From NCBI GenBank assembly GCA_964187785.1, contig OZ076409.1:79672001-79736000 (forward strand): a DNA stretch of 64,000 bases. Direction: 5' to 3'. Positions 4,667 through 32,599 of the stretch are shown one piece after another (positions within the stretch are counted from its first letter, which is position 1; the number at the start of each line of letters is the position of its first letter). The DNA comes from Amphiscolops sp. MND2022. Taxonomy: Eukaryota. A program made the position numbers and the translations under genes. The notes below the pieces were generated by a model. It worked only from the letters and a program-made list of their open reading frames with translations. It ran no database searches and was not told the DNA's origin.

Positions 4667-4973
4667 TGTCGCGCCCCAATTGGGGCTGCTTTGAAGGGCC
4701 TTGTGCACTAGTTGATGGGCTATCGCTGTTGGTTTTGTTAATAACGGCCATCATCAGGTCCTTCAGTTGGCAAAGCTCCGATTGGAGTTCGTTGATCTTA
4801 CGCTCATAATTCTCCTTCATTTCAGATAGCTGGGAGGAAATGTCGGAGCTTTCATATGTGTCGGAGTCATTAGAATTTAATTCTGCCATGGCTGAGTTCT
4901 CTGGCGTATTCTCTTCGGACGAGGGATCGACTATTTTGCCGTTTCTGAGCCTTGTACCTTGTTCTAGACTCAC
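4667..4973 (-). CDS. LTR-encoded Gag N-terminal coiled-coil segment (reads out of the LTR to 4524)
   Basis: SLEQGTRLRNGK...SEMKENYERKINELQSELCQLKDLMM resembles the LTR ORF at 18230 (ITLRNGK...LQSKMSMLKAMM). The frame is open to the LTR end. Confidence 0.65.
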
Positions 4974-6699
4974 GCGAATGGTTAAAACGGAGTGTGAGCG
5001 AAGACTGGGTTGTTGAGATATTTTGGGATGTATTTTCTAGTTTATGTCAATTTGTTCAATATGTCAATATCATCTAAATTTCATTGCAATGGTATTTACT
5101 AAAGATGATCATTCAGTGTTTTGCGAGTTGTTTTCTAGAGATCAGTTTCGGATGAATTTCTGGATAAACTTTACATGAATATACCAACTGTACGGTAGTC
5201 GGTCGCAATCTCTCACTGAATAATCAATATGGCGGCTCAAACTACAGCTGTGCGAGTGTCTTTCCTGGTTGGTAAGACGCAAATCTCTTACCAACCTTCG
5301 TTTCTATTGGTTGTTTCCAGCTGGTGCTACTTAGTAAGTCACGTGACCAGTGTTGCGAACTGCCGTAGGATGGCTACATACCATGGTAAATCTACATATA
5401 TGCAAATAGTATTGAATCATCAGCTTTACAGTGTTGTAATTGCCTGCACGTTAACAATGGTTGCTATGGAAATAGAAACAAGATGAATACACTCACTATT
5501 GCATCAATTTCAAGCCAAATTAAAATAAAACACATCTAGTGATGAGAAAATGATGTTTTCTACACGATAACAGCAATATCTGATAGCATTTGTATACAGG
5601 GATGAAGTAATGATGAAAACACTAAAATAATCACTGATTCCAAGCTCTAATTTAGTACAGGATGAAAAAGCGATGAAATCTCAGTTATTTCTGTCAAAAT
5701 TAGCACGAATTAAACTTGTGATGAAAAAGAGATGGACTTCCTTTCCTATTTGCTATTTCCAACACGGAATCGGGGAATTGGCGATGAATTAGGGATGTAT
5801 TTTCCAACAAACAAGTGAACCAGCGCAGTCACTCTTTTATGGTGAATTAAGGATGTACTTTCTCCTTTATCTCTCTTTCTAGTTATGCGATGAATAAATG
5901 ACGAGTTTCCTGTCTTAAGAAATGAGAAGCACATTTAAAATTACTAAAGCATATTCTAGCGATGAATTTATGATGAGTTAGTGAAAATAAAGACCCATGA
6001 AATCTGCTGATGGATTAGTGATGAAATAAATTAAAATGGTCCCATACTTAGTTCACTCACAACTCGGAGGATGAGTTTGTGATGAACTCTGGTAGAAATG
6101 GTTCTAAAGGCTCTTTAGCAAATCCATTGATGGATTTAGGATGAATTACTACAAATCGCAGTTGAATGAAATCACTGGCTAATTCACTGATGGATTTGCG
6201 ATGGATTTTACAGTAGCACCAGTTTATCCATGAAAAGTAGTCAATGATTTTAGTGGATGAGGAAAGATGAAGTTTCCTCTAGTGTGGTTGCATAAACTAA
6301 TACTGGGTCACATCGAAGTAAATGAATTGTCACTGCCGTCACTCTGAGGCGGGGAGCATATCGAAGCAACAAACTTCATCACTTTTTTTGTCTTTTGGTC
6401 CAGTTTGAACGGAAAACTTCTCTCTCTTGTCGTGACAAGCCAATTTTCAAGGATTATAGCACATTATGGCCATAGGCAAGATCATTTATGCGGAACACCG
6501 GAACTAGAGCGCTCAGTATTAAGTAGATATATATAGCTTACACTCAAAAGGGGGAAGGGAGTTAAGTACAAGTAACGTAGGGTTGCTCACAACCATAGCT
6601 CTTATTATATGACTTCATATTGCCCATATCTAAAAACATGACATAGTATTTACATTACAGATATTTAGTAGACTATATTTCCATCATGCTGGCATGACA
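4667..6699 (-). mobile_element. Ty3/Gypsy solo LTR (2033 bp), related to the 16795 element and inserted in the BEL 5' LTR
   Basis: On the minus strand it starts TGTCATGCCAGCATGATGGAAAT (near-identical to 16795 over ~135 bp) and ends CGCGACA. TSD is ATCTT/ATCAT (one mismatch). The flanks rejoin as BEL LTR. Confidence 0.9.
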
Positions 6700-7433
6700 A
6701 TCATTTTGACAAGAATTCATCCAACCACCCCTAAACATGACATGAACTTACTAGCGGTGGTAATTGCTTTTTTTTCACTCTAGGCACCCGACCTTGTATC
6801 TGCTTTGGATTCCGAGCAATTGGCACCGGAAGTGGTGAGAGTCGATCCGGAATATGTTCAATTTCGTGATACAAATTATTGGGTGTTCTTCTCTCATGAC
6901 GTTGAAAGAAATGTAACTCTGTTAAGTTAATGATATTTACATTGTGTCAACATGCTTTCGGGCACACCTACCAATAATGTCAAAACAGCCCGATAGCTGT
7001 TTACATAGCCAATAACTTCATATTGCACTTAAATGTCAAATAATAATATTTATTTTTACTTGCTCTACTTGCTCTGTTTACTGCAGAATTGTAAACTAGA
7101 TTTATATCAATCCTAGATAAGGAATTTAACGACTGAATAGCTTCGATCAGTCCTAGAGTCAGGGCGGAGAAGTACCTAATCTCATAGATGGCAAGTCGGA
7201 GCGCATGAAGATACAGAGCGGAAAGATTGTGACGGATCTCAAAAGACCCACCTTATTGTGAAGCGGGATCGCAGATAATCCTACAGGTCAGATCGGACCA
7301 ACAAGCTAAAACATACAGTCCATTAAAACACGAAAAACAGGACTAATAAGTAACGGTCCACAATACTAAACAACGGATCAGGGCGGCGTAAAGTAAAGCT
7401 TCACCACAAGATAAGGGCAAGCAGCCGTTACAT

Positions 7434-7450
7434 TGGTCCGCCGAACCAGA
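7434..7450 (+). promoter_or_regulatory. PBS of the BEL element (degenerate tRNA-Tyr type)
   Basis: TGGTCCGCCGAACCAGA lies 1 nt after the LTR end and resembles the TGGTCCTTCGAGCCGG PBS typical of BEL/Pao elements. Confidence 0.7.
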
Positions 7451-9053: not shown

Positions 9054-10590
9054 TTGCCAAAACTGAAGCTGTCAGAGTTTTTCAGTGACCCCGTGGAGCG
9101 GTTACAACGGTCGCAACTATTCCAAGCCACCATTTATGCAGCGAATATGGAACACAGTGCAAAGATGAAACAGTTGAAAAGCATGGTAACGGGCACAACC
9201 AAAGAGGCGACTTCTGGCTTGGGATACACTGCTAAAAAATATAATATGGCGTGGAACATGCTCGTTCTTATTTTTGGGAAACCTCAAATGCTTGTGAATG
9301 CATAGCTGGAGAAAATTTCTCCTTTCCAAAGATGAAATCTTATGAAGGATTAGCATTGATCAAATATGCGAGAATAGTGTCCAGTTGCGGGAATGTTCTG
9401 GCAAAATTCTCGTACGTTGAAGACTTAAACTCAGAAGGAGTTCTGGGCAGTGTCATAAGGAAGTTAACACTGGACATGAGAACGAAATGGCTCAGTTATG
9501 TCAAGCAATTGAACCTGTATCAACCTGGACTCACTCTGTTCAGGGAATGTCTCAGTGATATAGCAGATGTGCAAAATGAATTCCTTTTGTTATCAATCCC
9601 GAACGGTGATCACGCGAAGTCGCGCAACAAAGAAAAGGCCGAACGCTCCACGTATGCAGCATCAGCAACAAACACAGCAAACACAGCCAAGGACAATTCG
9701 AAAACCCAGCGAGAGTGTGTGCTGAATGATGACAAACATCCAATATAGAAATGTAAGAAATTCCAGAACTTGAACGTCGAAGAAAGAGGACAAAAGCTAA
9801 AGAATTGTGACTGTGCTTCAAATGTCTCTCAGACGCACATCAACTGAGGAATTGCTCTGGCAGACTCTGCGACGTCAATGGTTGCGGAAAACTTCAACAC
9901 AGATTGTCTCATCGGCCAAACAAGAACGTGGAGCAAGAGCAAATTGTTGAAAGCGTAGAGGAGGTCTCTAAATTTTCGTCAATGAGAAGCGGTGCGGTGC
10001 TTCCAGTCTTTCCGGTAACAATAAGGAGAGTGAGCAAACCTTTTAAAACAATCATTTTGTGCGAACCAGGCGCTAGTCTGTCGTTTGTGGACGAGAATCT
10101 GATGAACGCGCTAAATCTGACGGTGGCAGCCAGTTATTCTCAGTTTTGCAGGAATTTACGGTACGTCAGACATTAGCAGCAAGCAATTTCGAGTCGAGAT
10201 TGGTGATCAAGACGGAAACATCATTGAAGACGTCATGGCGTATAATCATGGCAAAATTAATGCAGGAAATCGAACATACAAGCTCACGAAATTGAAGGAA
10301 ACAAATCCTTACATGTCAGGTTAGAAAGACTCTGCCATCAACTTGAAATATGTTAAAGTATTCTTGGCTAAAGATTGTTATTACTTGTATATAGTTTCAG
10401 AATATAGCAAATATGGATATGCAAAACCTTGGACAGCGCAAACGAAGCTTGGATGGACTCTCAGTGAAACCTTGCATCAACAAGAGATCTCGAAACCATC
10501 CACTAAAAATATAGTTGCAGCCAAAGTGGACCCATTGACGGATCAAGTGAAAACATGGTGGAGTACGGAATTGTATGCTTCTGGCTGCAG
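9054..10590 (+). pseudogene. BEL/Pao gag-protease remnant (RT and IN apparently deleted)
   Basis: LPKLKLSEF..DP (DUF1759-like gag), CFKC...C...CDVNGCGK zinc knuckles, LCEPGASLSFV protease-like motif and PWTAQTKLGWTLS. Many stops and frameshifts. Confidence 0.8.
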
Positions 10591-13500
10591 AGAGGTTGCA
10601 GAAAAGTACGGAGAATTCAACAGACTTATTCGTTGTAGAAAGCAACTGGCAGGAAGTCAAACTATAGTCCTCCTCCTGGAAAAAAGTTTTGAGAATGGGC
10701 CCCACAATACCGGCCGCATCGGTGGAAAAAATTTTAGCAACGTGAATCTTTGGAAAATGAAACAATACTGGTGGAGAGCCAGATTCAGATCGAAATTCAA
10801 AGGATGATATTTTGACTGTAGTGCTGTGTATCGCCGCGCAGATGTTGAGAAACTAGCTGGAGAGAATATCGACTTATCTGAGAATCTTTTCTTTGGATCT
10901 CAGGAGATTTATCAGAGCTGAGTTACACGAGTTGAAACAATAATGGCTGAAATTGGTCAAGCGTTCTACAGCAGAGGAAGTGGCCCAACTCAAACTATAC
11001 GTGGGACGCTGATGTTGCAGGAACTGACAAATGTGACTGACGTGTCGAACGATGAAACCGTTTTGGCAAGTTTTATAATTGGAAAATGGGATGATATGGA
11101 AATCAATTGTATTGACAGTGAAACTGGCACCCTTGTTCTACGAAATCAATTTCTGGGAGAAAAACAGGGCAGGCAATGATGACGCCAATCAATTGCAAGA
11201 CGAAATACTGAAATTCGAACGTGACTGATCAAACTTATAACTCAAAACACTAAGACCTTTTGTCAAGATTTTAGTTGGAAAGTCACATGCTTCACCACAA
11301 ATAGTGCAACGCTTGAAACACCATTTCCTTTTTTTGTGAAGCACTCATCCTACCACCCCGGAAAAAGACATGAAGATACTAGAGGTGCTATTTCAACTTT
11401 TCACTCGTATCACCCGACCCCGTTTCCCTTTTGGGTTCCGAGCCACTAGCACCGGAAGCGATCAGCAAAATGTTCACTTTGGTGATACTATTTAAAAGGT
11501 GTTTTTCGCTAATGAAGTTGAAGGAAATGTAACTCTGTTGAAATTAATGATATACACATTGTGTCAACATGCTTCCGGACCCACCTACCGATATTACCAA
11601 AACCACCATAGAATTGTTTACATAGTCAATAACTTCATATTGCACTTAGGTTTCATTTAATTATACTTATTTAAATTTGCTCTATCTTTATTAAAGAATT
11701 GTAAAGATTTATATCGTTACTAGATGAGGAATTTAACAACTGAATAGCTTTAATCAAGTTGGGTCTCAGGAACACGAGACCTAATAACGTTCCATATCTT
11801 TACAACTTTCCGTTTGGGTCAGGGCGGACATATAGCTACTGTCATAGTTGGCGAGTCAGAGCGCGTGAAGATTCAGAGTGGAACGTTTGTGACGGATCTC
11901 AGTAGATCCACCCTAGTTTGAAGCGCAATCGCAGGAGAACCTACGAGTCCGATTGTACCCACCAGCTGAAAGATACAGTCCTCTAAAACACAAAACGAGG
12001 ATTGTTTAAGAAACGGTTTTAGAGCCGTTAGACCCATTAGAGCAAGCAGCCGTTACAAAAGGAAACAACGAAAAGGGAGACACTCAAGTGAAATTTGAAA
12101 ATTTCGTTCCAAAATCACAGTGCAGAAAACTCTAAAAGTGTGCCTTTGTAATCTTCCGTTTCGTAGATGATGTAAAAATGATGAAATTTCACAGCACAGT
12201 TCCTTCAGCCTATTGAATTCTTAGGCTAAAAGCGTATGTTTCGTAACACTTATGTCGAATCGTCACATTTTTGTCGTTTCCTGGCATTCGTGTCACTCTT
12301 GAAAGAAGGAGATACAAATAACTATAGTAATCTTGCGATATCAGTTGGCATACACGAAATCACCTAGTGGCATACACGTACACATCAAAGAAAGAAAGAA
12401 GTCGTCGCTTTCAAATGGGAAAAAAGCTATTACTTTGAAGTGATTTTTACTCTTCATTGTGTCAATAACGACATTTAGTATACGTCAACGCAACTATCAG
12501 TCCATTTTTACAGCCCACGGTGCGATGTGGTCACCCTTGAGTAGATACGACAACGGGATTTCTCGCAAAAAAAAGTTCTTGTCGAAACAAAATCTTGAAA
12601 GCATTTGGCGTTCCCCATTTGGTCTACTCTTGACGCATATGATAGCGTTGGTCATTTTGAAAATAAATTGGAAGAAAACATTTGGAGTCAGCAAAATGTA
12701 CGAAAAAGGGTTTATTCTGGGGAAAAAATCTTATAACCAGAATAGTGTTGAATAACTTCAAAAAACGTTTCTGAAAGTCCTAAACGTTTCCTATGCACCA
12801 AAAAGATTACGTTTTGAGAACTTTTTTCTTTGAATTTGTTTAGGTAACATTGAAAAAAGGTGACGTTTTCAGCTCCAACGAGAATAGACATTACATTTGG
12901 TCTTACTTGAATTTTTTAAACCAGTTTTTATCCAGTTTATAATTGTTGAATTATTGCCGTTTCCGGTCAAAATTCTTCACAGTTAATAATGTCAAAAATT
13001 CAATCAGATTGTTTAATGAACAAGTTTAGTCAAAAGTCAAAGCAATCAAAATTACCAAGTATCATTACGTTTTTGATTCTCTCATTATTTTGGCATTGGC
13101 GTTTCTTTCTGACCCATCTGTTAATCACCGGTGTAATGACACTGTGATACGCTTCATTCCGTCCGAGTAAGAAACTCTAGCCTTAGATGGAAGACTTCGA
13201 ACCAAAAAAAAAAGAGTCTCAAGTGTAAAAAATACGAAAAATAGCACTTGGACAATCTAAATAAGAGCAAAGTAGCTTATCGTAGTTTCGATTCGAGGTA
13301 CGAATATAAATGATAGCTTTTTAGATGCCTCGTGGCTAAAAACGATTGTGAAAAAATTCAAAGCTTGAAGAGGAATGGGAATTCATGCAACCTTGAGTTT
13401 GTGATTCCACACCCGTGTCACTTTGGCCAACGGCATCTCCAATAAACTGTGCTGAGTGATGGAATGAGAATTTGGGTAACCTCCTGGCAGGGTCATGTCT

Positions 13501-16199: not shown

Positions 16200-16794
16200 A
16201 TTGGAAAACATGCGGGGAAAATCCTCTAAAGCCACTGGGACCGTCATCTATCACAGAAAGCGCTTTGACAGATAGTGCAACCGTTTTTGCGGAACCTTTT
16301 TCTTCTTGCTGAATATTTTTATCCACTAACGACGATTTCCGACTCATGTTAAACTAGCCGAAGTTAAACGATCTATGGAGATGAGGACGTAGACGATCCG
16401 TGTAAGGACAGACCTTTTTCGATAACCACTGCTTGGTTCAAAGTTTCGTCGAAATTCCTGAAATCACAAATTACTCAACATTTGGATAACGATAAAAATG
16501 CTATCTCCAACATAATTTGGCTTCCGGTCAAAATACTCCACTATGGACAGTCTACTCTTTGTTACAGAATTTATTCGGAATCATCGGATTAAAAAATATT
16601 TATTACCGTCGCGCTTTTGTATTCAGTAAAGTCTTTTGACTAAATCTCACATGGATTTCTTCAAAATAAATTACTATTCATCAAGTTCGACAAAAATTGA
16701 AGCTCTGTTTTAAAACCTTTCTTTTCGAACAAATTTCCGCGTGTAGTTTTACATTTTACATACTGCTGTTTCTGAGTGGATTGGGCTGTATCAA
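16200..16794 (+). pseudogene. Non-LTR retrotransposon (CR1/L2/Jockey-like) RT remnant, left part
   Basis: FGFRSKYSTMD-like motif near 16516. It ends WIGLYQ directly before the Gypsy insertion. Left boundary approximate. Confidence 0.65.
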
Positions 16795-18560
16795 TGTCAT
16801 GCCAGCATGATGGAAATATAATCTACTAAATATCTGTAATGTAAATAATATGTCTTATGTACTTAGATATGGGCAATATGATGTCATATAATAAGACCTA
16901 TGGTTGTGAGCAACCCTACGTTACTTGTAACTAACCACCTATTTCCCCAGTGAGAATTGAGCTATTTATCTATTTAAAACTGAGCATTCTAGTTCCGTTT
17001 GTCCGCAATTCATGATCGTGCTAATAAGCAAATGATGCTATTTTACAATTAATGGCTTGTCACGAGAAAAGAAAGTAGTTTCTCGGTAAAACTGGACCGA
17101 CATAACGAATACACGAGATTGACACTCGCTAGAGAACTCCCGCCTCAGAGGAAACTAGCGCGACAAGCCTCCTCTCTTTGAAATACACCAAACGATGAAA
17201 TAACGATTTTATTGGTGCTAGAACTCATAATTTAACTCAATCTAACAAGTTTCATCCATATTACATCGTTTAACCGTGACCAGAACGCCAGAAAACGAGA
17301 GAATTGAAAAACGATGTAAAAGCGATGAAACTACCTGATTGAATACTTGTTGCCATATGTTTCATCATTTGTGCATCACTCACGCTTGCAAAACCTGAAA
17401 ACAGTGCTAGAATAACTAACGATGAATTAACGATGAAAATCTTTCATAGTTTCCTCATCTATAGCTAAATCACGCTTCCAAGACCTGAAAATAGTGCTAA
17501 AATCGGGAACGATGGAAAAACGATGGAAATCTTTCATCGTTTTTTCATCTGTAGTCAAAATTCGCCTATAATGATGATAAAGTGATGTAACTACTCCAGA
17601 ACTATATGCAGTGCTCTCCCCGCAACTCATTTCATCGTTTTCACATTTAGTTGATCGCTTTAACACTAGAGCGAAGTTCATTCACCATTCCTGCATCCGC
17701 AGCCACACAAACAGAATCAACTAGTGAAAACGATGCCAAAACGACAAAGTTACTGAATCCCGTATCTCCAGTTAGATTAGCGCTATTGATTCATCGTTTT
17801 TACATCACATTTGTTTAAAATTGATTTAATCGATCCCCCGTTAGATTGTACCCCAGTTTGATGTAATTTCGACACTTGCCGTGACTCAGACGGTGCCTTT
17901 TACAAGTTACTAATTTGAATGCAATAAATATTTATAGTAATTGGTTTAAATAGATTTAGCGCGCAATTTCAATTGGTAGCCCTCCAGCGACATGCAGTAC
18001 AACCGGTCACGTGACCAAGTGCTAATTAGCACCTTGCTAACCAACCAATGAGAACGAAACGATGGTAAGAGTCTTACCATCGAGCTGAAGGAAGGCTACC
18101 TCGGATACACACAAGATAACTAACGCCACATTGTACAAGTACTTGTATTACTCATCCTTTATACGTATCTTACTCCAGATTTTACAACAATTCAACTCTT
18201 ATCCACAATAGTCATCTCTTCTCCATCATATGAGTTCTGATTCTCAAATAACATTAAGAAACGGGAAAACACTAATTTGTACTACTTCAATAAATTCAAC
18301 GAGACCTACTTACGAAGGGGATATCGTTGACATGGAAAATAACAATGAAAACGTAAATGAACAAGCCCAGTCAGGACAAAGTTCGTCGAATCCTGAGATA
18401 GATTCTCAGAGGGTCAATGACGAAAGGTTTAGACACTTACAATCAAAAATGTCTATGCTGAAAGCCATGATGGAAAAGTTGCTAGAACAAAACGAAGAGA
18501 GAAATAGACAAACGGATACCAATGCCGCAGCATCTTCGTTCGCGGTACGGTCGTCCAACA
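16795..18560 (+). repeat. 5' LTR (1766 bp)
   Basis: TGTCATGCC...GTCCAACA. About 30 substitutions and one 5-bp indel versus the 3' LTR by manual count (~98% identity). Confidence 0.97.
18005..18081 (+). promoter_or_regulatory. Putative LTR promoter module: E-box palindrome, CCAAT box and hairpin
   Basis: GGTCACGTGACC (18005-18016), CCAAT (18045) and GATGGTAAGA-G-TCTTACCATC (18061-18081). The same three elements occur in the same order in the diverged solo LTR (~5350-5265, minus strand). Confidence 0.55.
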
Positions 18561-20284
18561 TGGAGTTAACATGACAGGTCGTCCTGACAGGAGTTAACAG
18601 GACTCACAGAAACCAACGCAACTATTTCCACGACGGAGAAGATGAAGAAGATTATGAAGACACACCAAGCAACTCAACGGAGACCGCATTACTCAATGCC
18701 ATCCAAGATCTACCAAGGAAATTGCAGAAAACAAACACGAAACTCCTGCAAACCCACGTTCCCAATTTCCGAGGTTCTAAAAACAAATATAACGAATTCG
18801 AGCACCTCTTACTTAACCATTTCCGACCCATCGCCAAAGAAATCACAGAGGAAGATAAAATACACTTCTTCCAGAGCTTACTCCGCGATGAAGCCATTGA
18901 CTTTTGGCAAACCATCACAATCAACCCAACCACCACTCCACAGGACGTCCTGCAATTATTCAGAAAAGAGTTCGCAAAAGAAGATATGAGAGAAGTCGCT
19001 CGCTACAATAGGAATGAGGCCAAATACGACCCGACCACCCAGACATTCGGAGATTTTCGAAAAAACCTCAAGAAAATTGCCAAGAAAGCATACGGCGACG
19101 AGGCCGACAAATGCATCAAGATGTTCCTCTTCGGGAAATTACCAGTCGAAATCCAACAAGAGCTGACAATGGCGAACAAGGAAGACAGCAGCTCCGAAGA
19201 AATCAAAACCTACCTACTCATAAAATACCAAAATCAGAACGTCCTACAACAACCTGCAACGACATATCAGCCATTCAACCAGATGTCTGATAACAATCCC
19301 AAACGAGAATTCACACGCTCCCACCAATCCCAGCCCAAATCAGACACTAAACGATTCGATGGAAAATGCTTCTACTGTGGTAAACAAGGCCACAGGAAAC
19401 AAGAATGCAGAGGACGCCAAATAGATGAAGCTAGTGGCATTAACAAACCAGACGCCATACAACCTACCAAACGGCAAGATGAAGATAAGCCAAAATACAA
19501 CCCAAAAGTATTTTCAGTAAAGCCACAATTTCACTCCGCGAACAACCAAAGTGCGCACCCACATTCTGACTCCAAAACTCACTCGACTCAACAAACTCAA
19601 CGCAATCGTCATCAGAGGTCTTGGCAGCCCTCTGGTGATTCCAGCAAAGCAGACGAAGTCTATCTGCGAAGAAACCAGAAAACCGATAAACAACCAGTGA
19701 AGTCAATGCGGACTACCAACAAAATCACTCCATTGGAAAATTCACTCGATGAGCAAACGATGAACTCGCATAACGACGCATTGAGGCCTGCGCACGATGC
19801 CAAAGAGATGTCCCCACATCTACAACCAACGGACCGACTCTCAACAGATGACAAATCGACAAAACGGCTTAGTAGTAAAACACATGCAAACGACAAGAAC
19901 AGTGTCTCAAAAACTAAAAAACATGCAACCAATAACCAATTTCACGTGCTTAGTCCAACCTTACATTTAAATAAAAAAGATAAGATGATGTTTGTTCCCC
20001 TCCAATTTAACAATTACGAAAACCAAGGTCTTTTAGACACTGGAGCAGTGCAAAGCGCACTCTCGGAAGCAGAATTACGCAAAATCACCGCTGCTCATCC
20101 CGAAGCAGAATTAGACGAATTACCACCCCCTAACTTCAAAGTTCAGATAGCTAACGGCAACTTGGTCCCCATTCGAAAACAAGTCCTTTTACGCTTTTTC
20201 ATAGCAAGAAAAGTATTTGAAGAAGTCTTTTTAGTCCTCCCTGGGAACAATGGGAACAATCCTGATTGGAATGTCGTTCTTTGA
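18230..20284 (+). pseudogene. gag: gag (starting inside the LTR) and aspartic protease
   Basis: ORFs 18230 and 18722 are in the same frame, separated by a single TGA inside the PBS insertion. VPNFRGSKNKYNEFE capsid-like start, CFYCGKQGHRKQEC knuckle, LLDTGA protease. Confidence 0.9.
18561..18597 (+). promoter_or_regulatory. PBS disrupted by a 21-nt insertion (reconstructed TGGTGACAGGAGT, tRNA-Leu-like)
   Basis: TGG + AGTTAACATGACAGGTCGTCC + TGACAGGAGTTAAC. The related element at 45770 has the PBS TGGTGACGAGTG. Confidence 0.65.
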
Positions 20285-23200
20285 AAAATATTCAGTCAAC
20301 CTTGACATCAAAAATCATTTAGTCCACTTTCCAAACCACATGATGTCAATGCAAGTGAGACATCAGACGAATAAAAAGTTCAAAACTGGGTTAAATAATT
20401 TGTATTCCAGCAGCAGAACCACCATCTTTCCCCACCATCAAGTACTGATTGAAGTCCACAGTGACGCGGACATATCAAGTACAACTGGCACGGTAGAAGG
20501 GACTCCAGCATTCATGCGCAAGACGTGTCTCTTGGTGTCTCCAGCAGTGGTTGACCTAGACGATGGAAAAACGATGGTTCAGGTGACCAACCCCAACGAG
20601 CACGTGTACACACTTGAAGCCAACACCAACCTGGCACACTTCAGAATACCAACGCCCCATCAAGCAGCCAACATCACACCGATGCCAGTCGAACACCTGA
20701 AGTTGATCACCGATCACCCAGACGATGCAGCAGCAGTGATCAACCAACTCTTCGTGAACCCAGAGATGAAGACTACAAAATGGTACCCGACACCAGAGAC
20801 GTGCAGTGAACCAGATAAACTCAACAAGATCGAAAGACGCATTTTCGATGAGATTCTGGCCCTCAGAGAACTGCTCGATCCTACCCGCTCCCATGAAGAA
20901 CGAGTCAAGTTCCTGCAGAACTTCAAGTGGGAAGAATCACTTCTCTCTCCGTCTCAACGAGCTCAGGTAGAGGAGTTGCTGGTAAAGTACAACTCCATTT
21001 TTGCTAGACATCGTTTAGACATCGGCATGAACACTGATTTTAAAGTAAAATTAACACCCCAGCATGAAGAACCGGTGTTCTCCCAAAGTCTCCCTACCCC
21101 TACTAACCTAAAAGATGACTTGCTTGTAGAATTAGCGTTAATGCAGGAGTACGGGATTATAACTACTCTTCCTTACAGCAAATACTCTTCACCGATATTT
21201 GCACAGCGTTAACCGAATGGTAACCTAAGGATTTTAGTTGACTTGCGGAGAATCAACCACCTGATCAAGAACGATTACGGCGAACACAACCACCCAGTCA
21301 CAACTGTTTTAGACGCTGTTCAACACATGGCTGAGAAAAAATATTTCTGTAAACTTGATTGTTCCCAGGCCTACCATTGCATACCAATGGCCGATGAGCA
21401 GTCAATCCAACTTTTGTCTTTTAACTTTGGATCCCGTACCTTTGCTTTTCTTAGACTAGCTCAAGGTCTTAATTGTTCTCTTTCAGCCTTCACCAGCGTA
21501 GTCCGCGAGTACTTGGACACCTTGGTCAAAGCGGACCGCTGTGCCCAGTATGTTGACGACATAGGCATAGCAGCAAATACGCCTGATGAATTGATTGAAA
21601 ATTTAGAACTTGTTTTTCAGCAGTTGTCCAAAGCTGGTTTAAAACTCAGCTTAAATAAATGTGAATTCGGCCAACAACAAATTGAATACCTCGGCAAATC
21701 AATTTCTAGCACTGGAATAGCACCCATCGAAAAACGAATAACTGATTATTTGAAGAAACTCAAACCTCCCACTTCAGTTAAAGCTCTCCAACGGTACTTA
21801 GGATTTGTCAACTTTTACAGGTCCTACATTCCCCGGTTGGCAGACAAAACAGCCGTTCTTCACGAAATAATCAAAAAAGACCCTACTTTTACATTAGAAC
21901 AACGTCACAAAGATGTAATTTTTGACATTAACGAAAGTTTACTCAAGGCTACTAAACTGTCATTGAAACTTCCCCTTCCGGATAAACAATTAGTAATCAT
22001 GTGTGACGCAAGTGAACATGCAGCAGGTTATGTTCTTTTAATAGAAGACTACTCTGAAACACAATCGGGTAGCTTGAAGAAGTACGCACCAGTTGCTTTT
22101 GGCTCTAAGAAATTTCAGGGTGGACAGGGGTCATTAACAATGAACGCTAAAGAGTTTCTAGCCATGCACTTCGCATTCGACGAGTTCGGCCACATTCTGT
22201 GGGGTGCACAGAAACCTATAATTGTAATGACAGATAATAAAGCACTCACCCGTTTCTTTCAGGCCAAACACATACCACCGTCACTTTTTTAAAATTTTTG
22301 CGACAAGACGCTTCAGTTTAATTTTAATTTGGCACATGTACCAGGTGTAGAGAATCCCGCAGCGGATTACCTTTCCAGGTTTAAAATTCGACTTAACTGA
22401 TTCCTTTCCAGTACACCATATAGAAATTAAAATCGCTTCGAAGACGCCAAAGCAGGAGGAAGACGAACCAGACTTCTTCCCTCCTAGCGAAACACTGAGA
22501 CAGAAAAGGTCACACGATGCTAAACCGATGAAAGTGATCAACTCTGAGACAGTGACAATCGATGATGGCAAACCGATGAAAACAGTTGACGTAGCGACGA
22601 CAGCATGTGACGATGACAAAACGATGAACTACGTACACTCCACACCACTGGCCTCTGAGAATGATCACACAAGCTCCCCTCAGACCTACCAGCTAATGAC
22701 TGACGCTCACCTACCAGGGTACACTAGATTCATCGTAAAAACATCGTTACTACACCCGGTAACGAAGGAGGTTAGCCCCCCAGGGGGAGTCGATTTAATT
22801 TTAACCCAAAAAACGAATAGTGACATTCAACTTATGTTAAAAATTTTGTCTGGCGAAACAACTTTGACCCACTCTGTGAACTTGATGTCAACGTTTTTCC
22901 AAAAACTTCACAAAAACAGAAAACGTCTTGAAAATGTAAACGAAGTTCTGTACCGTATCTTTTATGACCATACTGGCCTTGAGTCCCATAAACAAATCGT
23001 GGTACCTGATCAAGTGATGTTAGAAATAATCAGGTCCTTACACAGTAACCCTGTACAGGGACACCCCGGTTCTAAAAAGATGTTACATGAACTACGCAAA
23101 CGCTACTACTCTCCAAGTCTTGCTGAAAAAACACAAAAAATACTCGAAAGCTGTGAAACTTGCATGTGTTCGAAATCGACGAACGAATCAAAAATCCGTC

Positions 23201-24261
23201 CACCGTTACAGAAAATATACGACCCGTGTAACGGCCCTACTGATCTGATGGAAGTTGACATAGTCGGACCACTGCCTGCATCAAACGGATTCACACATAT
23301 CCTGACCGCAATCGACGTATTCTCGCGTTATTTGTTTGCTGTACAGCTACGAAAACCCGATACACCATCCGTCGTTAATGCTCTACTGTCGGTATTCGCC
23401 AAACACGCGTACGTCCCAACGCATATCCTGACTGACAAAGGATCCGTGTTCACCGCCGAACTATTCCAAAACCTGACCAAAGCCACTGGCATTGAAATCT
23501 CCCATGCAACCATAAAACATGCACAAACCATAGGCATGGTTGAGAGAAGTCATGCAAAACTTAAAAAAATCCTAAAAATACATGTAAATGTAGACAGACC
23601 ACAATGGGACCGCTTTGTCGACATAGCAATCATGGCCCATAACACCACGTACCACACTTCTCTGAAATGTTCACCAAATGAAATCTTTCACGGACGCACT
23701 CCATACAACGCTTTGGACCTAAAATACTCTAATCCTGAACGACGAGTCGACACCAAGTTTGGAGACGTCAACCAGATCCTAAACCACATGAACGAAATCT
23801 ACCGAAACAACACAGACAACATAGTAGCTGCATACCACAAGTACAAAGCTTATTATGACAGAAAAGCCAAAGCACAACCACTCAAAGTGAACGACCTTGT
23901 TTTCCTACTTGACCCCAAATACGACTCTCAGAATTGCAAAGAAGAGTTCAAGACTTTCCACTGGAAAGTTCCGTTCAAAGTGATGAAAGTGCTGTCCGAC
24001 AGTAACTACATCATACGAAAGGTAGGAACGTTCAAAACACAATGCGTTCACCGTATACGACTGAAAACCTTCAAACCGGAGTTCCCTGTAGAAGACGTGG
24101 ACATCAACAACCAACCAGTATACGCTGACACGGATCGAACGGAAGATTCTGATATTTTCGATTCCCACATTCCCACACAAACAAAATTAAATTACAATTC
24201 GGACGAACCAGAAACTGATGAAGAAACACCAGTTGAAAGAGTCATCCGATTAAAATCGTAA
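20250..24261 (+). pseudogene. pol: pol: RT, RNase H, integrase (disrupted)
   Basis: YSSPIF, KLDCSQAYH and YVDDI (RT). CDAS and MTDNKAL (RNase H). H..GHPG..CETC, VDIVGP, TDKGSVF, VERSH and a GPY/F-like KVPFKV (integrase). Stops at ~21210 and ~22290; frameshifts near 20245 and 22380. Confidence 0.95.
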
Positions 24262-25967
24262 GATTATAGGCAGGCAATCAAACACGACAGACCACTGAAT
24301 CGACTACCGAACCGACTGTCGTTAACACCACAACCGGAAATAATCATAAACGACCTGCCCCGAAACGCCCCACAGGTACAATTCAATGAAAATGATAAGT
24401 CCACAGGAAATCATACAAGATACAGCGAAACAGCCAGAACCATCAACAGAACCTGCCAACACCGAGACACCCCAACAGGTGAACGATGACGAAACGCCAA
24501 ATCTGATAGCAACGAGGACAAATAAAAGCAAATATAGTCTACGCAAACATCCTCAGCCGAAACTACTCAGACTTCCTAATTCATGAAATCTCAACTGCTC
24601 GAAGCGCCCTACGCAAAACAAACACTACTCTGCAGTAGAAAGCGATAGAAAAACATGTAAATGACAATCTCACATCAAAACGATGGTTAAATAACACCCC
24701 ATCGTGAAGAAACAGTGAAATTACCAGAAACGATGTAAAACCGATGGAACATTTCCATCGGCACCACATCGCTTCCAGAAACACATAAAATTCAAGTGAG
24801 TTTAACGATGGTCATCCCAACCTTCTCTGACCATGCCACAAAAACAATTCGAGTTTCCATGACCTGTCTGTTGATAATTCGTAGGCTTTGGCTCGTGTCA
24901 ACATCTGATTAGCGACCCTCAGTTGAGGAAAATTTGGCAATTAGACTAACCACCGCAATTGACTGAAAACTTATAACAGCACGATGTAAAAGAGATGGAA
25001 TTTCTCCATCACTTCTACATCCCCCTTCTCTCTACAATTACCTTCAGTCAAGAGAGAAAAAATCCTCAATCGTCAACAGACCATAGGCCTTGCCTTGGGT
25101 TGACATTCGGTTCATTACCGCCCTGATTGAGGACATCGAAAATATACAAAACTACAAATAAAACCTAACAAAACGCCAAAAATCACTACGATGACAAAAC
25201 GATGGACATTTTTCATCGTTTACTCATCGTCGTCTTTCCTCGACTCAAAATTAACTAGTTACCAACCAACGACAAGAAAACGATCAAAATGTTTCATCGT
25301 TCTCACATCGTTGTAATCACCACCAGGTGAGCCCAACAAGCTCACCACATAGATGCAAAAACGATGGAAAATCTCCATGGTCTACACCACGCCTCACAAA
25401 ACCGTCCGAAAAGTACTACGATGGAAAAATGATGGAAATTTACCATCGATTGCCCATCGCCTGTAAAATTCAACTTAAAATTCTTTTTCCCGATTCAACG
25501 ATGGCGAATTGATGAAAGCACTTCAGCGATTCACTCATCGCCACACACATCAAAGCCACTCTCACACAAGACTTTGTAACGATGTGATTACGATGGAAAT
25601 CTTCCATCGCTTACACATCTCCTCAAAATTACATGAAAAGAGTCAAAGCATGTAAATAAAAGCCCATACATGAACGCTATCGCCAAAAGTCGCTACAAAA
25701 ACGCCTTACAGGTAATTTACAAACAAACTGTACATAAAACGATAACCGACACTCAAAGGCTCTACAATTTGCCTGAATCCACTGAATAAAAGTAAACAAC
25801 GAAGTAATAATTAATTACTTGCCGAACTATTCAATTTGCATCACATACTCTTTCGGTCAAAAAATAGATGCTCAACATATACCAAGAATACTACAACAAA
25901 CTAACTAAAATTGTACATATTCAACTCAAAATAAAAACAACAAAAATAGCTGAGCGTGGAAAACAGT

Positions 25968-28900
25968 TTAAAATCGGTGCGATCCACCAATTTCCGGACA
26001 CCCAATCCTTCCTCCATCCGTATCGAATCCAAGTCGCTCCAAAACAGCATCACGATAACCTTCGGGAGACTCTCTTCCAACTTCTTCCCACAAGCTTTCT
26101 AGCGTCACGCTGCTCAGATCCTCAATTCTCCCAACAGCCTCACTACATTCCGTAACTAGTCCATCAGGAATACTGTGTAGACTACGCACGCCCCGCGCAA
26201 CACACCAACTTCTAATTGTCCGGAAAATGCTCAACAAAGGCTCTGACGATAAAACTGGCAGACTAATTCTGACCATATTAACACTCTGATTAACGCTGCC
26301 GCTCAAACAAAACGATAACTGCATCATCCGCCGCAAAGTAACATCTGAAGCACCGTACTGCAACAACTCATTCTCATGGAAGTCTGAAGCATAATCATCA
26401 TTGTGGTCATCTCGAAATTGCCTGACGAACCGTACGTAAGATTCAGCCATAAGAGTCTTTTCTTCTTCTGCAATGACACCATTCCGCCCTAATGCTTCGA
26501 GAAAATAGCCAATGGTTTCCTGCATTTCATTGACTCTTCCCCGCATTAGTACATCTGGACACCAACAGGATAGAGCCATATTGACCTGATCAGATACTTG
26601 GGGCATCCGTAGCAAGTTGATGGCAACAGTAGTCAGGAACTCCTCAACAACAGTAACTGCCTCACGATATTCCTTTCCCCCCACAAGCATTGTTGCCACG
26701 GTGAGTTTCGAATGTCCGATACATCTGTGACTCTCTCCCCGCACTCAGTCGTAAACCGCTCAGCTGAAAACCAGCTCAACGATGCAGCTCAAAAGACTCA
26801 GGCACTGTCGAAGGTACTGCAACCATCAAACAAAGCTCTCGGACAGTACGTAACACTTCGGTGACTCCATACAATCCTCGGTGCAAGTGGTCACTGAAGG
26901 TCTGCTTCATATTCTTGAGTACTGAAGCAAAACGATAAAAGAACAACAAGTCAATGACCAGGTACACGCCGACGTAAACTGGGTATCCATACCCCCCACA
27001 CACATTACAAATTATACTTGACAAACACTTTAGAAGTCAAAATTGCTGTTACACACAAAATGACATAAGTCCGATGAAACCTATGGACGTTTTCCCCACC
27101 TCCAACAACACACGATGTATACACGATGAAACTTGTACAAAAAAATTTACTTGTAACAAAAGGGAAAATCTAACCAATTGAATATACCAATCCCACAGCA
27201 TGAAATTTCAAAGGGAGCCCTGACTCCTGCAATATCAACAACTCCATTCGCTTGGGATCTGCGCTTCCCCCATCTGGTCCAGACGCTGTAGCAAAGGCAC
27301 AAAGCCGTCCCATGACTGACGAAATTCTTCTAGTACAGACACTATCTCCCAATTGGAGATCTCACCAGCCACAACGCACTAAAACAAAGACACGTGACTA
27401 AACACACTGTATATATGAATTTTCACTCACATCCACATCGCTTTTCCATTTCCATTAACAGTTACAATTAAAAACCAAGTACAAGATCTCACTAACTCGC
27501 AACAAAGCAGGACAACTGAGCAGCACAGGATCAGTCAAACAATCACGTAGTTTCACCAGAAGAAAGTCCATTACCGCGTGAACGTCCTGCCCGTCGAACA
27601 CGGACGATCCAGCCGATGTGACGATCTGCAAAATGGAACACAATTGCACAGGATTCAGTTGCAAACCACGTCGATCACCGTCTCCTTCCAGCAAACCCCC
27701 CACAGATGAGAGACAACCACAACTGATCCCCACTGGGACAAAGTCGTCCACCACACAACTCCAGTAATCTGCGAGCCACTCTGATACTCGCTTCTCAAAA
27801 ATCTCAGTTGCGATGACCTCGAACAGGACCACACCACGTACTGCATCTGATTCAGCCACACTGACCGAGCAACGAACCACATTACGATCCCGATACAGGT
27901 ACAGGCCAACGGGACTTTCACCACATAGAGAAGCAGAAATCGTGCGAACAACATAAGGCCACACTCCGAAGATCAGAAGAGCCTAAAACAAATACAATCA
28001 CACACAAATCACCAATTAGTTCTACTACAACCAAATAAATCTTTAAAAGCCCATTCAATACCTCAAAAAATTCCCTCATGTCATGAAGCCCAATTAAAAC
28101 TTAAAAAGATGCAATACATGTAAACATGTACACATGAAGCATATACTAACAACTACGTCTTCGTTTCGACATCCGCCTCCGAAAAGACTTCCATAAGAGA
28201 CGTCCGTCGTCGCCAAGGAGTCCCACAAGCTGGTAAGGTCCGTAACGTCTCCACCTCGATAGAGCGCGTCAACAACTACGCAAAGAAACATTCTAAGGCT
28301 GCGCTCCCTATCAGGCACATCCTGCACAGTCGAACTCCAGATACTTCCACCTCCTGACTCAATCCGAAATACGTCCTGAACTGACAACGAAGGACACACC
28401 TCGACGTCTGGGACAGATAGCCCGCGTAACTCCTCCACCATCTGAGCTGCTTGTGCAACTCTCATCACAGCACCGGTTGGCCTTCGTAACAACAGTCCAC
28501 GCCGTAAACGCACTAGACAATCCAGTTTATGATGTATCACACCGCGACAATGTTCAAGAAATGTTGAGATTCCTCGACTGCCGACCTTCAGATCGCAACG
28601 GCATAGAAGGCACCGCACATACGCATCGGACGAACGATGCTCCCGAGCAAAACCAAGTGAAATTCCTGCATAAGGTTGCAGAAACCAGGTCGCTTTAATG
28701 CTATTCAATGCCACTAAAACAAACCAGATGGAAAACCGATGCAACCACCCTACTGGCCGCAGGACAGAAGGGACTTCAGTTCTAGTAACTATAACGATGA
28801 AAAAACGATGTTTTAACTGCATTAGTTAAAGAAAACTCCCACGATGCAAAAACGATAAAAACTCTGAAAACGAAAAACTGAGAAAAAACGAAAGAACAAA

Positions 28901-29730
28901 ATCGAAAACAAAACCTAAATAATTGCTTAAGTAGTCAAGAAAACCAAAAACTTGGAAAACAGTGAGTCACATGATCGATGAAGATGTTTAGTTTACCTGC
29001 CCGAACTGGCCGACTACCAACGAAGGAACAGATGAATCCAAGATGGAAGCCCCCGCCTCACCCACAACGGAAACACTTCCAGAGGGCCTCACGACATCTT
29101 CAGCTACATCAAGGTCCATCTCCTCTGACTCCCTCTGCTTATTATCAGAGACCGCCCCGACGCTGTCTGACACCTCAGAAGGAGACCCAATCGCAAACTC
29201 ACGACCCGTTTGGGTAGCAACTTCACACGGTAGCTCAGTCACTTCACGTCCACAGACACAAGACACAAGATGTCGAACGACAGGTCTCGCAACTGACTGC
29301 ACCTCACGAGGGACTGAAAGTAACAACATTCATCGTTCTTACATCGCTACCACAATTACGATGAGAAACCGATGAAACTCATGTAACCAGCATATATCCG
29401 CTAACAGAGCTAGCCAAGACCGACAATACACATAAATTGACTTACTGGCACTAGCAAGCTCTTCTCTCACGGTACTACGCAAGTACCCATCGTACCACCC
29501 CAAGGACAAAGAACCCAGCGGTTGTTGCCAAGGAGTGTAAACTGAAATAACATGACGATTGATTGATGATGGATACCCGATGGAATTGATGAACAGACGG
29601 AATATGACTCACATTGGGGATACATGGGCACCAACGGATGATGCGATATGGGAGTCTGGACCGTCGTAATCGGTCCCACACCAGTGAGTTCTGCATAGAC
29701 TCTTGGGCTCCCAGACCCGGACGGCGTCAT
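25968..29730 (-). pseudogene. Antisense spliced accessory gene of the Gypsy element: BED/TTF-type zinc finger plus hAT-transposase-like body (~900 aa when reconstructed)
   Basis: Exons 29730-29613, 29541-29446, 29313-28997, ~28800-28151, 27982-27497, 27378-27175 and 26921-25968, joined by GT..AG introns. Zinc finger W..F...VRCLLCRCDLKVGSRGISTFLEHCRGVIH. A few frameshifts and stops in this copy. Confidence 0.75.
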
Positions 29731-29934
29731 TCTTTCTTCAGCAGCTAAATAAAGTGTAACATCAACAACACGCGTGCCCAAAAACCTGAACTGGTATAAC
29801 GATGGAAGTTCGATTACTCACTCAGTACATTCATCTCGTCAATTGACTCTCGATTGTCGGACATCGTGACGATAGATCAAAAAAACAACGATTGCAATCT
29901 GAAATAATAGAACATGAATGAAGGTAGATAATTA

Positions 29935-30300
29935 ATGCGCATTCATTTTGACGAAACGAAAACATGGCTAAACGACAAATATGATGGCCTGATCAACCGT
30001 GATATGACACCGATTTATCTCGCAGATTCAAAAGAACAAACAACGTTTCGACTACATCTAACAATATCAAGCCAAAGAGAAGAAAAATCTGACCAAAATT
30101 CTTCAAAATTGATGCAAATTCTCTATCTCCTTCCACCAACTAGCAGAGGAAACTACGGTTTGACTACATTTATTTACTCAAAATTCAATGAAAATCTTCT
30201 CAAAGTGTTAGATGCAGCTGCCAGCGTCGTTAGCAATTTGAATGATTTACACACTGAGCGGAAAGACGCACTCGAAATTGTGGCTACATTGTTGACTTAA
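29935..30300 (+). CDS. 121-aa sense-strand ORF of unknown function in the Gypsy 3' region
   Basis: ATG-initiated ORF with protein-like composition. No recognised domain. Confidence 0.35.
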   Translation: MRIHFDETKTWLNDKYDGLINRDMTPIYLADSKEQTTFRLHLTISSQREEKSDQNSSKLMQILYLLPPTSRGNYGLTTFIYSKFNENLLKVLDAAASVVSNLNDLHTERKDALEIVATLLT

Positions 30301-30823
30301 TGACTAATTACAATAACTGAACGTTTCCTCCTCGCACACAGTTGGAATTCCTACCGCAACCACTCATTCAATATTACGTCATTTTTCGTTCACGCTTGTT
30401 ATGAAATTCCAACCACAGTCCATTCAACTTCTTTCACATGTTGTTTCACTCTCTTTGATGAACCAAACAATAATGAATTCATCTCCGCCAACCCACCCCA
30501 GTTATAAAACGAGATTCTACATCCACTCCTGACAGCCAAAGATGCCGATCCGCGGACAATCGACGGGCCAAGAACTAGAACTGACGCGTCCGAAATTTAA
30601 CCGATATAACCAAGTTCACAGCCGATATTAACCCGATGAAAGATGTCTCCTTCTCAGAGAAGATACAAATGAGACAAAACCAACGAAGGCACCAAACAAT
30701 TGAGAACCAACGAAGGCAATTCCCCTGAGACCAACGAAGGAAAATGTCAAAGCCCACGCTGCGACAACCATCCTCTGCACATTTGGCCCCTGCGCTCCCC
30801 TTCCAAATCCCTCCCCCCGGGAG

Positions 30824-32594
30824 TGTCATGCCAGCATGATGGAAATATAATCTACTAAATATCTGTAATGTAAATAATATGTCTTATGTACATAGATATG
30901 GGCAATATGATGTCATATAATAAGACCTATGGTTGTGAGCAACCCTACGTTACTTGTACCTAACCCCCTACTTCCCCAGTGAGAATTGAGCTATTTATCT
31001 ATTTAATACTGAGCATTCTAGTTCCGTTTGTCCGCAATTCATGATCGTGCTAATAAGCAAATGATGCTATTTTACAATTAATGGCTTGTCACGAGAAAAG
31101 AAAGTAGTTTCTCGGTCAAACTGGACCGACATAACGAATACACGAGATTGACACTCGCTAGAGAACTCCCGCCTCAGAGGAAACTAGCGCGACAAGCCTC
31201 CTCTCTTTGAAATACACCAAACGATGAAATAACGATTTTATTGGTGCTAGAACTCATAATTTAACTCAATCTAACAAGTTTCATCCATATTACATCGTTT
31301 AACTGTGACCAGAACGCCAGAAAACGAGAGAATTGAAAAACGATGTAAAAGCGATGAAACTACCTGATTGAATACTTGTTGCCATATGTTTCATCATTTG
31401 TGCATCACTCACGCTTCCAAAACCTGAAAACAGTGCTAGAATAACTAACGATGAATTAACGATGAAAATCTTTCATCGTTTCCTCATCTATAGCTAAATC
31501 ACGCTTCCAAGACCTGAAAATAGTGCTAAAATTGGGAACGATGGAAAAACGATGGAAATCTTTCATCGTTTTTTCATCTGTAGTCAAAATTCGCCTATAA
31601 TGATGATAAAGTGATGTAACTACTCCAGAACTATATGCAGTGCTCTCCCCGCAACTCATTTCATCGTTTTCACATTTAGTTGATCGCTTTAACACTAGAG
31701 CGAAGTTCATTCACCATTCCTGCATCCGCAGCCACACAAACAGAATCAACTAGTGAAAACGATGCCAAAACGACAAAGTTACCGAATCCCGTATCTCCAG
31801 TTAGATTAGCGCTATTGATTCATCGTTTTTACATCACATTTGTTTAAAATTGATTTAATCGATCCCCCGTTAGATTGTACCCCAGTTTGATGTAATTTCG
31901 ACACTTGCCGTGACTCAGACGGCGCTTATTACAAGTTACTAGTTTGAATGCAATAAATATTCATAGTAATTGGTTTAAATAGATTTAGCGCGCAATTTCA
32001 ATTGGTAGCCCTCCAGCGACATGCAGTACAACCGGTCACGTGACCAAGTGCTAATTAACACCTTGCTAACCAACCAATGAGAACGAAACGATGGTAAGAA
32101 TTGAGTCTTACCATCGAGCTGGTGGAAGGCTACCTCGGATACACACAAGATAACTAATGCCACTTTGTACAAGTACTTGTATTACTCATCCTTTATACGT
32201 ATCATACTCCAGATTTTACAACAATTCAACTCTTATCCACAATAGTCATCTCTTCTCCATCATATGAGTTCTGATTCTCAAATAACTTTAAGAAACGGGA
32301 AAACACTACTTTGTACTACTTCAATAAATTCAACGAGACCTACTTACGAAGGGGATATCGTTGACATGGAAAATAACAATGAAAACGTAAATGAACAAGC
32401 CCAGTCAGGACAAAGTTCGTCGAATCCTGAGATAGCTTCTCAGAGGGTCAATGACGAAAGGTTTAGCTACTTAGAATCAGAAATGTCTATGCTGAAAGCC
32501 ATGATGGAAAAGTTGCTAGAACAAAACGAAGAGAGAAATAGACAAACGGATACCAATGCCGCAGCATCTTCGTTCGCGGTACGGTCGTCCAACA
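30824..32594 (+). repeat. 3' LTR (1771 bp)
   Basis: Direct repeat of 16795-18560. Confidence 0.97.
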
Positions 32595-32599
32595 ATCAA

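Follow-up and report, generated by a model that had tools for sequence, protein, structure and literature searches.

The window, by which we mean the whole 64,000-nucleotide stretch analysed here, contains a 15.8-kb Ty3/gypsy LTR retrotransposon flanked by the 5-bp target-site duplication ATCAA (16790-16794 and 32595-32599). Its LTRs run from TG to CA and are 98.1% identical over 1771 bp, Pfam matches to reverse transcriptase (RT), RNase H and integrase lie in Ty3 order, and gag is followed by protease-RT-RNase H-integrase, the arrangement of Ty3/gypsy elements. This copy is decayed, with 2 stops in the gag match, 3 in pol and several frame changes; other copies of the family have open gag and pol frames and LTRs that are 99-100% identical. 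A further gene lies on the opposite strand, and an array of short palindromic sites occupies the interval from the end of pol at 24638 to the 3′ end of this antisense gene at 25968. The antisense promoter probably lies in the 3′ LTR. These elements showed no env-like ORF, and no tRNA or Rfam element was found. The main features are:

16795..32594, plus strand: Ty3/gypsy LTR retrotransposon, 15.8 kb, a decayed clade I copy (LTRs, target-site duplication, Pfam)
16795..18560, plus strand: 5′ LTR with 9 half-sites and the gag start inside
18230..24638, plus strand: gag-pol, broken by stops and frameshifts
25968..26921, minus strand: antisense exon C, helical, weakly resembling the Hermes insertion domain in structure; reading frame interrupted in the window copy
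27188..27378, minus strand: antisense exon D, short; frame broken in the window copy
27497..27982, minus strand: antisense exon B, a helix, three strands and helices in a low-confidence model
28151..28713, minus strand: antisense exon A, a C-x2-C...H-x5-H BED-like finger (28532-28612) and a helical region
28997..29313, minus strand: antisense exon 1, low-complexity, acidic and proline-rich, with boundaries placed at splice-like junctions
30824..32594, plus strand: 3′ LTR with 10 half-sites
4669..6699, minus strand: solo LTR, closest to clade II, with 10 half-sites

In the window (18230-18560) and in all whole elements fetched, gag starts within the LTR, and solo LTRs thus include the first part of gag, as does the one at 4669-6699. 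Half-sites in this solo LTR run in one direction, mostly about 60 bp apart (5541-6203), and form no palindrome. The purine tract 5′ of the 3′ LTR (30790-30823) is very short in clades I and II, with a C-rich run before it, and is longer in clade III. Elsewhere in the window, a decayed BEL/Pao-like element at 6750-12100 (weak DUF1759 match, flanking repeats) has no half-site arrays and provides a local control; its presence hints at an animal host. Several unrelated small repeats at 38800-63600, some of them inverted, resemble non-autonomous DNA transposons.

The array is built from a 39-bp palindromic unit, GATG-N7-GATG-N9-CATC-N7-CATC. An earlier note on this DNA had reported five exact units, starting at 24732, 24983, 25190, 25420 and 25581, and all five were re-found. 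The degenerate units that it placed at about 25271, 25352 and 25500 were also recovered: the first two each carry 3 mismatches in 16 tetramer bases, and in the third the left half-site is exact and the right arm decayed. The LTRs add three exact units, at starts 17511, 31450 and 31540. The basic repeat is the half-site GATG-N7-GATG, a direct repeat with a period of 11 bp. Thirteen half-sites occur in 24300-25900, compared with a mean of 0.48 and a maximum of 3 in 500 shuffles preserving all 4-mer counts, and the full 39-bp unit arose in 0 of these 500. The sites are distributed as follows:

17421..17549, no strand: two palindromic units in the 5′ LTR, with 1 and 0 mismatches
19748..19810, plus strand: two half-sites in the poorly conserved N-terminal pol region, in D-x-x-x-M codons
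22516..22626, plus strand: three half-sites, 48 bp apart, in the RNase H-integrase linker
24732..24770, no strand: exact palindromic unit 1 (pattern count)
24983..25021, no strand: exact palindromic unit 2 (pattern count)
25190..25228, no strand: exact palindromic unit 3 (pattern count)
25271..25309, no strand: degenerate unit, left arm decayed, right half-site exact at 25295
25352..25390, no strand: degenerate unit, left half-site exact, right arm decayed
25420..25458, no strand: exact palindromic unit 4 (pattern count)
25500..25514, plus strand: exact left half-site of a decayed unit
25581..25619, no strand: exact palindromic unit 5 (pattern count)
31450..31578, no strand: two palindromic units in the 3′ LTR, both exact

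Counting alternative spacings, as the earlier note had proposed, singles out N7: the element holds 47 half-sites with this spacer and 1, 1, 3 and 1 with N5, N6, N8 and N9, and the whole window contains 38 GATG pairs and 20 CATC pairs at N7 against 0-3 at any other spacer from 0 to 15. Window sequence outside the family, 45.9 kb in all, has GATG-N7-GATG once. The note had assigned the array to the 3′ untranslated region; sites are present there, but they also occur in the LTRs, in the interval from pol to the antisense gene, in introns and in codons of flexible pol linkers. Its view that spacer bases vary freely is contradicted by 58 distinct clade I units, in which C directly precedes GATG in 86-88%, positions 6-9 are A in 78-84%, and spacers are A/T-biased, A-rich on the left and T-rich in the right arm. 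A search of the 1.07-Gb genome with a 35-bp form of the unit gave 1145 matches, compared with 7 for a reversed control and 108 when the central spacer was set to 8. Of the first 15 loci of the 35-bp pattern, at least 13 fall within family sequence. Two matches about 6 kb apart (L011 and L012, G000:C1:6.33M) have no similarity to the family references and represent either chance or another repeat.

Conservation among copies is concentrated in the tetramers. The window 3′ array was compared with the 11 of 15 other clade I loci that had flank divergence above 8% and enough overlap. Mismatches affect 25 of 972 tetramer bases (2.6%), 158 of 847 spacer bases (18.7%) and 2018 of 11629 flanking bases (17.4%), a roughly 7-fold lower rate of change in tetramers than in spacers and flanks, and lone GATG or CATC words in this array are mismatched at 15.7%. 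In clade II (24 of 34 pairs) the values are 64 of 2685 for tetramers (2.4%), 10.6% for spacers, 9.2% for lone words and 6119 of 35567 for flanks (17.2%). Lone words in LTRs are conserved too, with 2.3% mismatched. The copies are related and the units were defined on the reference copy, which could inflate tetramer conservation by up to about 2-fold, but these effects cannot explain a 7-fold gap. Sequence comparison thus shows the half-site to be under purifying selection, and the pattern is that predicted for a DNA-binding footprint, as the earlier note had proposed in preference to slippage.

The antisense gene accompanies these sites consistently, adjoining gag-pol in the same position in 11 of 11 whole-length fetches. 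It is predicted to be spliced: blocks of protein similarity stop at GT and resume past a T-rich AG, and in 17 of 17 copies, drawn from three clades, the exon B acceptor is an AG after a T-rich tract. A tally of donor sites carries no weight here, because the anchors used for it end in valine, a residue with a GT-initial codon. Of 2063 candidates for the finger exon in the genome, at least 150 are scored matches. We calculated dN/dS from stop-free copies, pairing only members of one clade at a dS of 0.3-1.5. The median is 0.14-0.19 in exon A (8 and 6 pairs) and 0.15 in exon B (43 pairs), compared with 0.06-0.08 for integrase; values of 0.14-0.19 place the accessory protein under purifying selection. 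Finger residues C31, C34 and H51 are conserved at 90% or more across the three clades. At E up to 1, Pfam zf-BED matches exon A in 14 of 37 copies, with weak scores (best E 0.0016), and exon A aligns weakly with hAT fingers of the same genome (hhalign E 0.0019); on these weak scores, the protein has the N-terminal BED zinc finger of a hAT transposase. Atlas leads, all below 0.9, were zf-C2H2_12 and zf-BED for exon A and nothing coherent for exon C. In clade III (L138-L144), the last antisense exon ends in a basic, low-complexity C-terminal tail about 120 residues longer than in clades I and II.

Evidence for hAT ancestry beyond the finger is only suggestive. The exon C model (pLDDT 65.5) aligns with Hermes 372-564 at rank 2 (Z 5.2, rmsd 3.5 Å, 134 residues), the longest alignment with rmsd below 4 Å among those listed, but its Z of 5.2 is tied with unrelated helical folds, and hAT was already suspected before this structure search. 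The exon B model (pLDDT 43.6) runs from helix to three strands to helix, and its fold search was uninformative. Exons B, C and D gave no sequence-level hAT signal, with hhalign E of 0.3-0.75 against two hAT alignments, no better than reversed controls; neither Pfam nor hhalign supported a helical insertion domain or hATC region; and no catalytic DDE motif was recognisable, the few invariant acidic columns having no register to hAT. Foldseek returned no match for exon C at E ≤0.001, PDB searches with exon profiles found nothing significant, a word-based search for longer homologous proteins found none, and a JGI metagenome scan revealed no relative. A profile search of 1.84 billion proteins gave 97 matches, nearly all exon-sized unnamed fragments; two that we searched back are 43-48% and about 28-32% identical to this genome and, at these identities, are probably from other species. 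Half-sites number 0 in 32 partial loci of true hAT elements, whose ends were often uncovered, and no donor family was identified. Exons A-D may resemble one hAT subgroup, and we lean somewhat towards hAT ancestry for the whole antisense protein.

Three clades in the genome carry the antisense gene, with the same exon layout in clade III. RT identity is about 85% for clade II and 74% for clade III. All 51 of the clade I and II loci examined have at least 8 half-sites; the palindrome is present in 12 of 16 clade I loci and 0 of 35 clade II loci. The four-tetramer palindrome that the earlier note took as the footprint unit is real in clade I but specific to it, the half-site being the shared unit. 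Clade II half-sites mostly point in one direction within a region, commonly 60-70 bp apart with unalike intervening sequence, and their orientation is opposite between the LTR and the 3′ region. Spacings peak at 48-49, 58-61, 68-72 and 81 bp (R 0.65 at a period of 10-10.2); helical phasing between these half-sites is only suggestive, R also being about 0.6 at 11.5-12 and the copies being related. One inverted layout, its two arms separated by a spacer of 8, turns up repeatedly in clade II, for example at G000:C2:6492310.

Clade III was exposed through a distant homologue from the profile search (3894 candidates, 6 loci fetched) and uses a different motif. Its loci contain 3 half-sites in 55 kb, compared with 211 in 71 kb of five clade I elements and 292 in 80 kb of four clade II elements. 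A palindrome chosen by eye and then counted, GACTG-N7-CAGTC, occurs 22 times at N7 (≤1 mismatch) against 0-6 times at other spacers, and 2 and 0 times in clades I and II. Genome-wide, YGACTG-N7-CAGTCR is found 2001 times compared with 159 for the control, and such sites flank clade III genes at C1:9.449M and C1:14.705M, neither of which was used to derive the motif. The geometry is that of the inner clade I unit (CGACTG-N7-CAGTCG and CGATGR-N7-YCATCG). Clades I and II have half-sites at matching positions in the pol linkers, where clade III has none. The finger helix also differs, reading [KRN][VI][GA]S[RQ][GV][IL][ST]T in all 28 clade I and II copies listed and SIAG[RL]GL[HS][NS] in 6 clade III copies. 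S66 and N67 of the Hermes BED domain contact bases (PMC10368747); counting from the zinc-binding histidine, we infer that the clade-differing helix residues fall at these positions. The motif differs in the clade whose finger helix differs, and on these sequence grounds the finger protein encoded antisense by the element itself, already named by the earlier note as candidate binder, is the best candidate. This switch of finger and motif is one evolutionary event, not statistical co-evolution. In a clade III subgroup with yet another finger helix (L143), both near-matching sites have one GACAG-type half, hinting, from two sites only, at a further specificity variant.

Antisense genes differ sharply among otherwise near-identical elements. 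In comparisons of C4:48.7M with C2:98.1M and of C3:0.49M with C1:0.94M (loci L050-L053, L060-L061 and L064-L065), elements with 98% identical gag-pol share only 48-74% DNA identity across exons A-C, and the borders are sharp. The swapped block of the clade I pair includes the 3′ array, at 69% identity with tetramers nearly fixed. Clade II subfamilies with 98-99% identical integrases have antisense exons 39-73% identical as protein, and clade I and II antisense proteins are about 26-49% identical. These alignments indicate that the antisense gene is exchanged as a cassette between backbones 98% identical, in what looks like the shuffling of long-kept alleles by recombination.

Arabidopsis VANDAL transposons and their VANC proteins offer the closest logic (PMC5735166, PMC6719617): a transposon-encoded accessory protein, diverging faster than the core enzyme, is paired with short motifs gathered in the transposon's own non-coding regions, and the motif differs between related families with different proteins. 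Here too a short motif is enriched in the non-coding DNA of its cognate family and differs between families. The carrier, in contrast to VANDAL, is an LTR retrotransposon, probably of an animal; the gene is antisense, contains predicted introns and encodes a BED-like finger instead of DUF1985/DUF287, both absent from Pfam scans of exons A, B and C. VANC sites are 8-9-mers in tandem repeats, whereas here they are spaced dyads of fixed geometry, and binding and derepression are demonstrated for VANC (PMC5735166, PMC6719617) but are only proposed here.

The host also differs from that of VANC in giving no CpG-methylation signal. Five elements have a CpG o/e of 0.99-1.06, and transitions at CpG are only 1.1-1.5 times as frequent as those at other C/G positions. 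Both cytosine-methyltransferase genes found on chromosomes (L145, L146) are DNMT2-like; two further matches lie on small contigs. One of the two DNMT2-like genes lacks introns in the matched region. A DNMT1-RFD search gave no match, but its control likewise gave none, and it says nothing on DNMT1 absence. Because CpG o/e is about 1.0, the CpG transition excess low and the methyltransferases DNMT2-like, a VANC-like effect through DNA demethylation is unlikely; the VANC/VANDAL analogy drawn by the earlier note holds for the logic but probably not for this route.

Hermes, a hAT transposon, provides the nearest parallel for the finger and its sites. Its BED domains bind precisely phased subterminal repeats, and it shares with our family a BED-type finger with the same second-cysteine-to-first-histidine spacing and palindromic, rigidly phased 4-bp words in A/T-rich flanks (PMC10368747), to which exon C adds its weak structural likeness to residues 372-564. 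Unlike a hAT, the antisense gene lies within a retrotransposon at every fetched locus that included pol, its sites are spread over the whole element and not beside terminal inverted repeats, no DDE motif is recognisable, and sequence homology is detected in the finger only. The plant Ty3/gypsy elements Retand, Grande and RIRE2 also have a long region from pol to the 3′ LTR with repeat arrays and a conserved antisense ORF, for which a regulatory DNA-binding role has been proposed (PMC11963269, PMC7264820). These ORFs encode TRP28, of unknown origin and not known to have a matched binding site; TRP28 is absent from Pfam scans of exons A, B and C, which instead include a BED-like finger, and here the array geometry is fixed internally and the motif changes with the finger. 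Drosophila BEAF-32 is a BED-finger protein that self-associates and binds clustered short motifs (PMC5021357, PMC2605929), where it restricts H3K9 methylation (PMC2605929), and by analogy it may serve as a model for anti-silencing without DNA methylation. BEAF is, unlike the element protein, a host gene acting at host promoters, and the likeness rests on finger type. Among LTR elements, foamy viruses encode in Tas a regulator of their own transcription. HTLV antisense genes show that an LTR element can encode its own transcription regulator from the antisense strand (PMC11963269); both proteins are unrelated to that of our element, in which no env-like ORF was seen. Among the titles and abstract openings covered, in a mostly open-access literature, none describes an LTR retrotransposon that combines a BED-finger gene on the antisense strand with arrays of matching sites; a prior description is possible.

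From these sequence patterns, the element's own antisense finger protein probably binds the arrays, and we consider it an even call whether it both binds and acts positively. In the mechanism that we favour, the protein, probably a hAT transposase descendant that would no longer cut DNA, would form multimers whose BED fingers read 4-5-bp words one helical turn apart, cooperatively. Two half-sites head to head make the 39-bp unit of clade I, and a multimer shape differing by clade would give tandem or palindromic layouts; this is an extra assumption, needed as clades I and II share a finger helix yet differ in higher-order geometry. By coating its own LTRs and internal non-coding DNA, the protein may keep the family open or transcribed, most plausibly by limiting repressive histone marks, as BEAF does, or by activating the LTR promoter, and not by DNA demethylation. 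Protein allele and 3′ array would travel together as an exchangeable cassette. The effect of binding is the least certain step, and the sequence evidence fits activation or repression. As a whole, the reading of a captured, disarmed hAT gene as a family-specific anti-silencing or insulator protein, carried in an exchangeable cassette and following a code that links finger to motif (GATG-N7-GATG versus GACTG-N7-CAGTC), with many old alleles kept by an arms race with the host or sister subfamilies, is offered tentatively, as possible rather than probable.

The same protein might instead bind and restrain, through autorepression or copy-number control, exclusion of competing subfamilies, or as a cDNA scaffold for nuclear entry or integration. 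The evidence for binding is identical, sites over both LTRs and the whole element would suit a cDNA role, many deeply diverged alleles on 98% identical backbones would fit self/non-self competition, and self-restraint is common among transposons (PMC6719617). We consider restraint rather doubtful, since carriers are abundant, several with LTRs 99-100% identical, so that the gene accompanies recent success, and intron and pol-linker sites exceed the needs of simple promoter repression. LTRs often collect host-factor sites, and a hijacked host transcription or insulator factor could occupy the arrays while the antisense protein serves another purpose. One half-site is common to clades I and II despite the low identity of their antisense proteins, and host BED proteins such as BEAF bind clustered short motifs (PMC5021357, PMC2605929). 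This is unlikely, given how rare the half-site is outside the family in the window (1 in 45.9 kb), its count of 0 in the 32 partial hAT loci, the location of 13 or more of the first 15 pattern loci in family sequence, and the replacement of the motif exactly where the finger helix changes.

Action of the units as RNA or single-stranded DNA hairpins, in packaging, export or processing, is very improbable. Folding energies of the five units are -16 to -31 kcal/mol whichever strand is folded, with z of -4.5 to -8.6, but any palindrome would be expected to fold. Checking spacer complementarity, which the earlier note had proposed for separating a hairpin from a DNA site, revealed a slight excess of pairing at free positions (54.5% versus 48.2% in re-dealt arms, a level reached in 24 of 2000 shuffles), but only about 55-58% of free positions pair. 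In clade II the half-site is equally selected although 0 of 35 loci have a complete inverted unit, evidence against a hairpin as the shared role, and its opposite orientation in LTR and 3′ region, the fixed 11-bp period, a signature of the double helix, and the lack of any Rfam match count against it as well; a secondary RNA role may exist in clade I. That the arrays are a neutral by-product of tandem duplication or slippage has next to no probability. Some units lie 48-110 bp apart and could come from local duplication, but the roughly 7-fold greater conservation of tetramers effectively refutes this origin, inter-unit sequence is unalike and sites are retained inside coding DNA.

The family carries a real, selected cis-element system that follows VANC-like logic without being a VANC family member. 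The best-documented cases in which a transposon encodes its own sequence-specific counter-defence protein are plant VANDAL DNA transposons. On what antisense ORFs do in Ty3 elements, this family offers a candidate protein with its candidate site, a switch of specificity that arose naturally between clades, and copies, scored or candidate, in the thousands. If the element's own protein binds these sites, each lineage could mark and regulate its own copies. If the captured-hAT reading is correct, a retroelement would have arrived independently at a VANC-like system, in a host that lacks CpG methylation; a retrotransposon would have turned a DNA-transposase-type DNA-binding module into a self-recognition system, and its clades would provide a natural series for the BED-finger recognition code.
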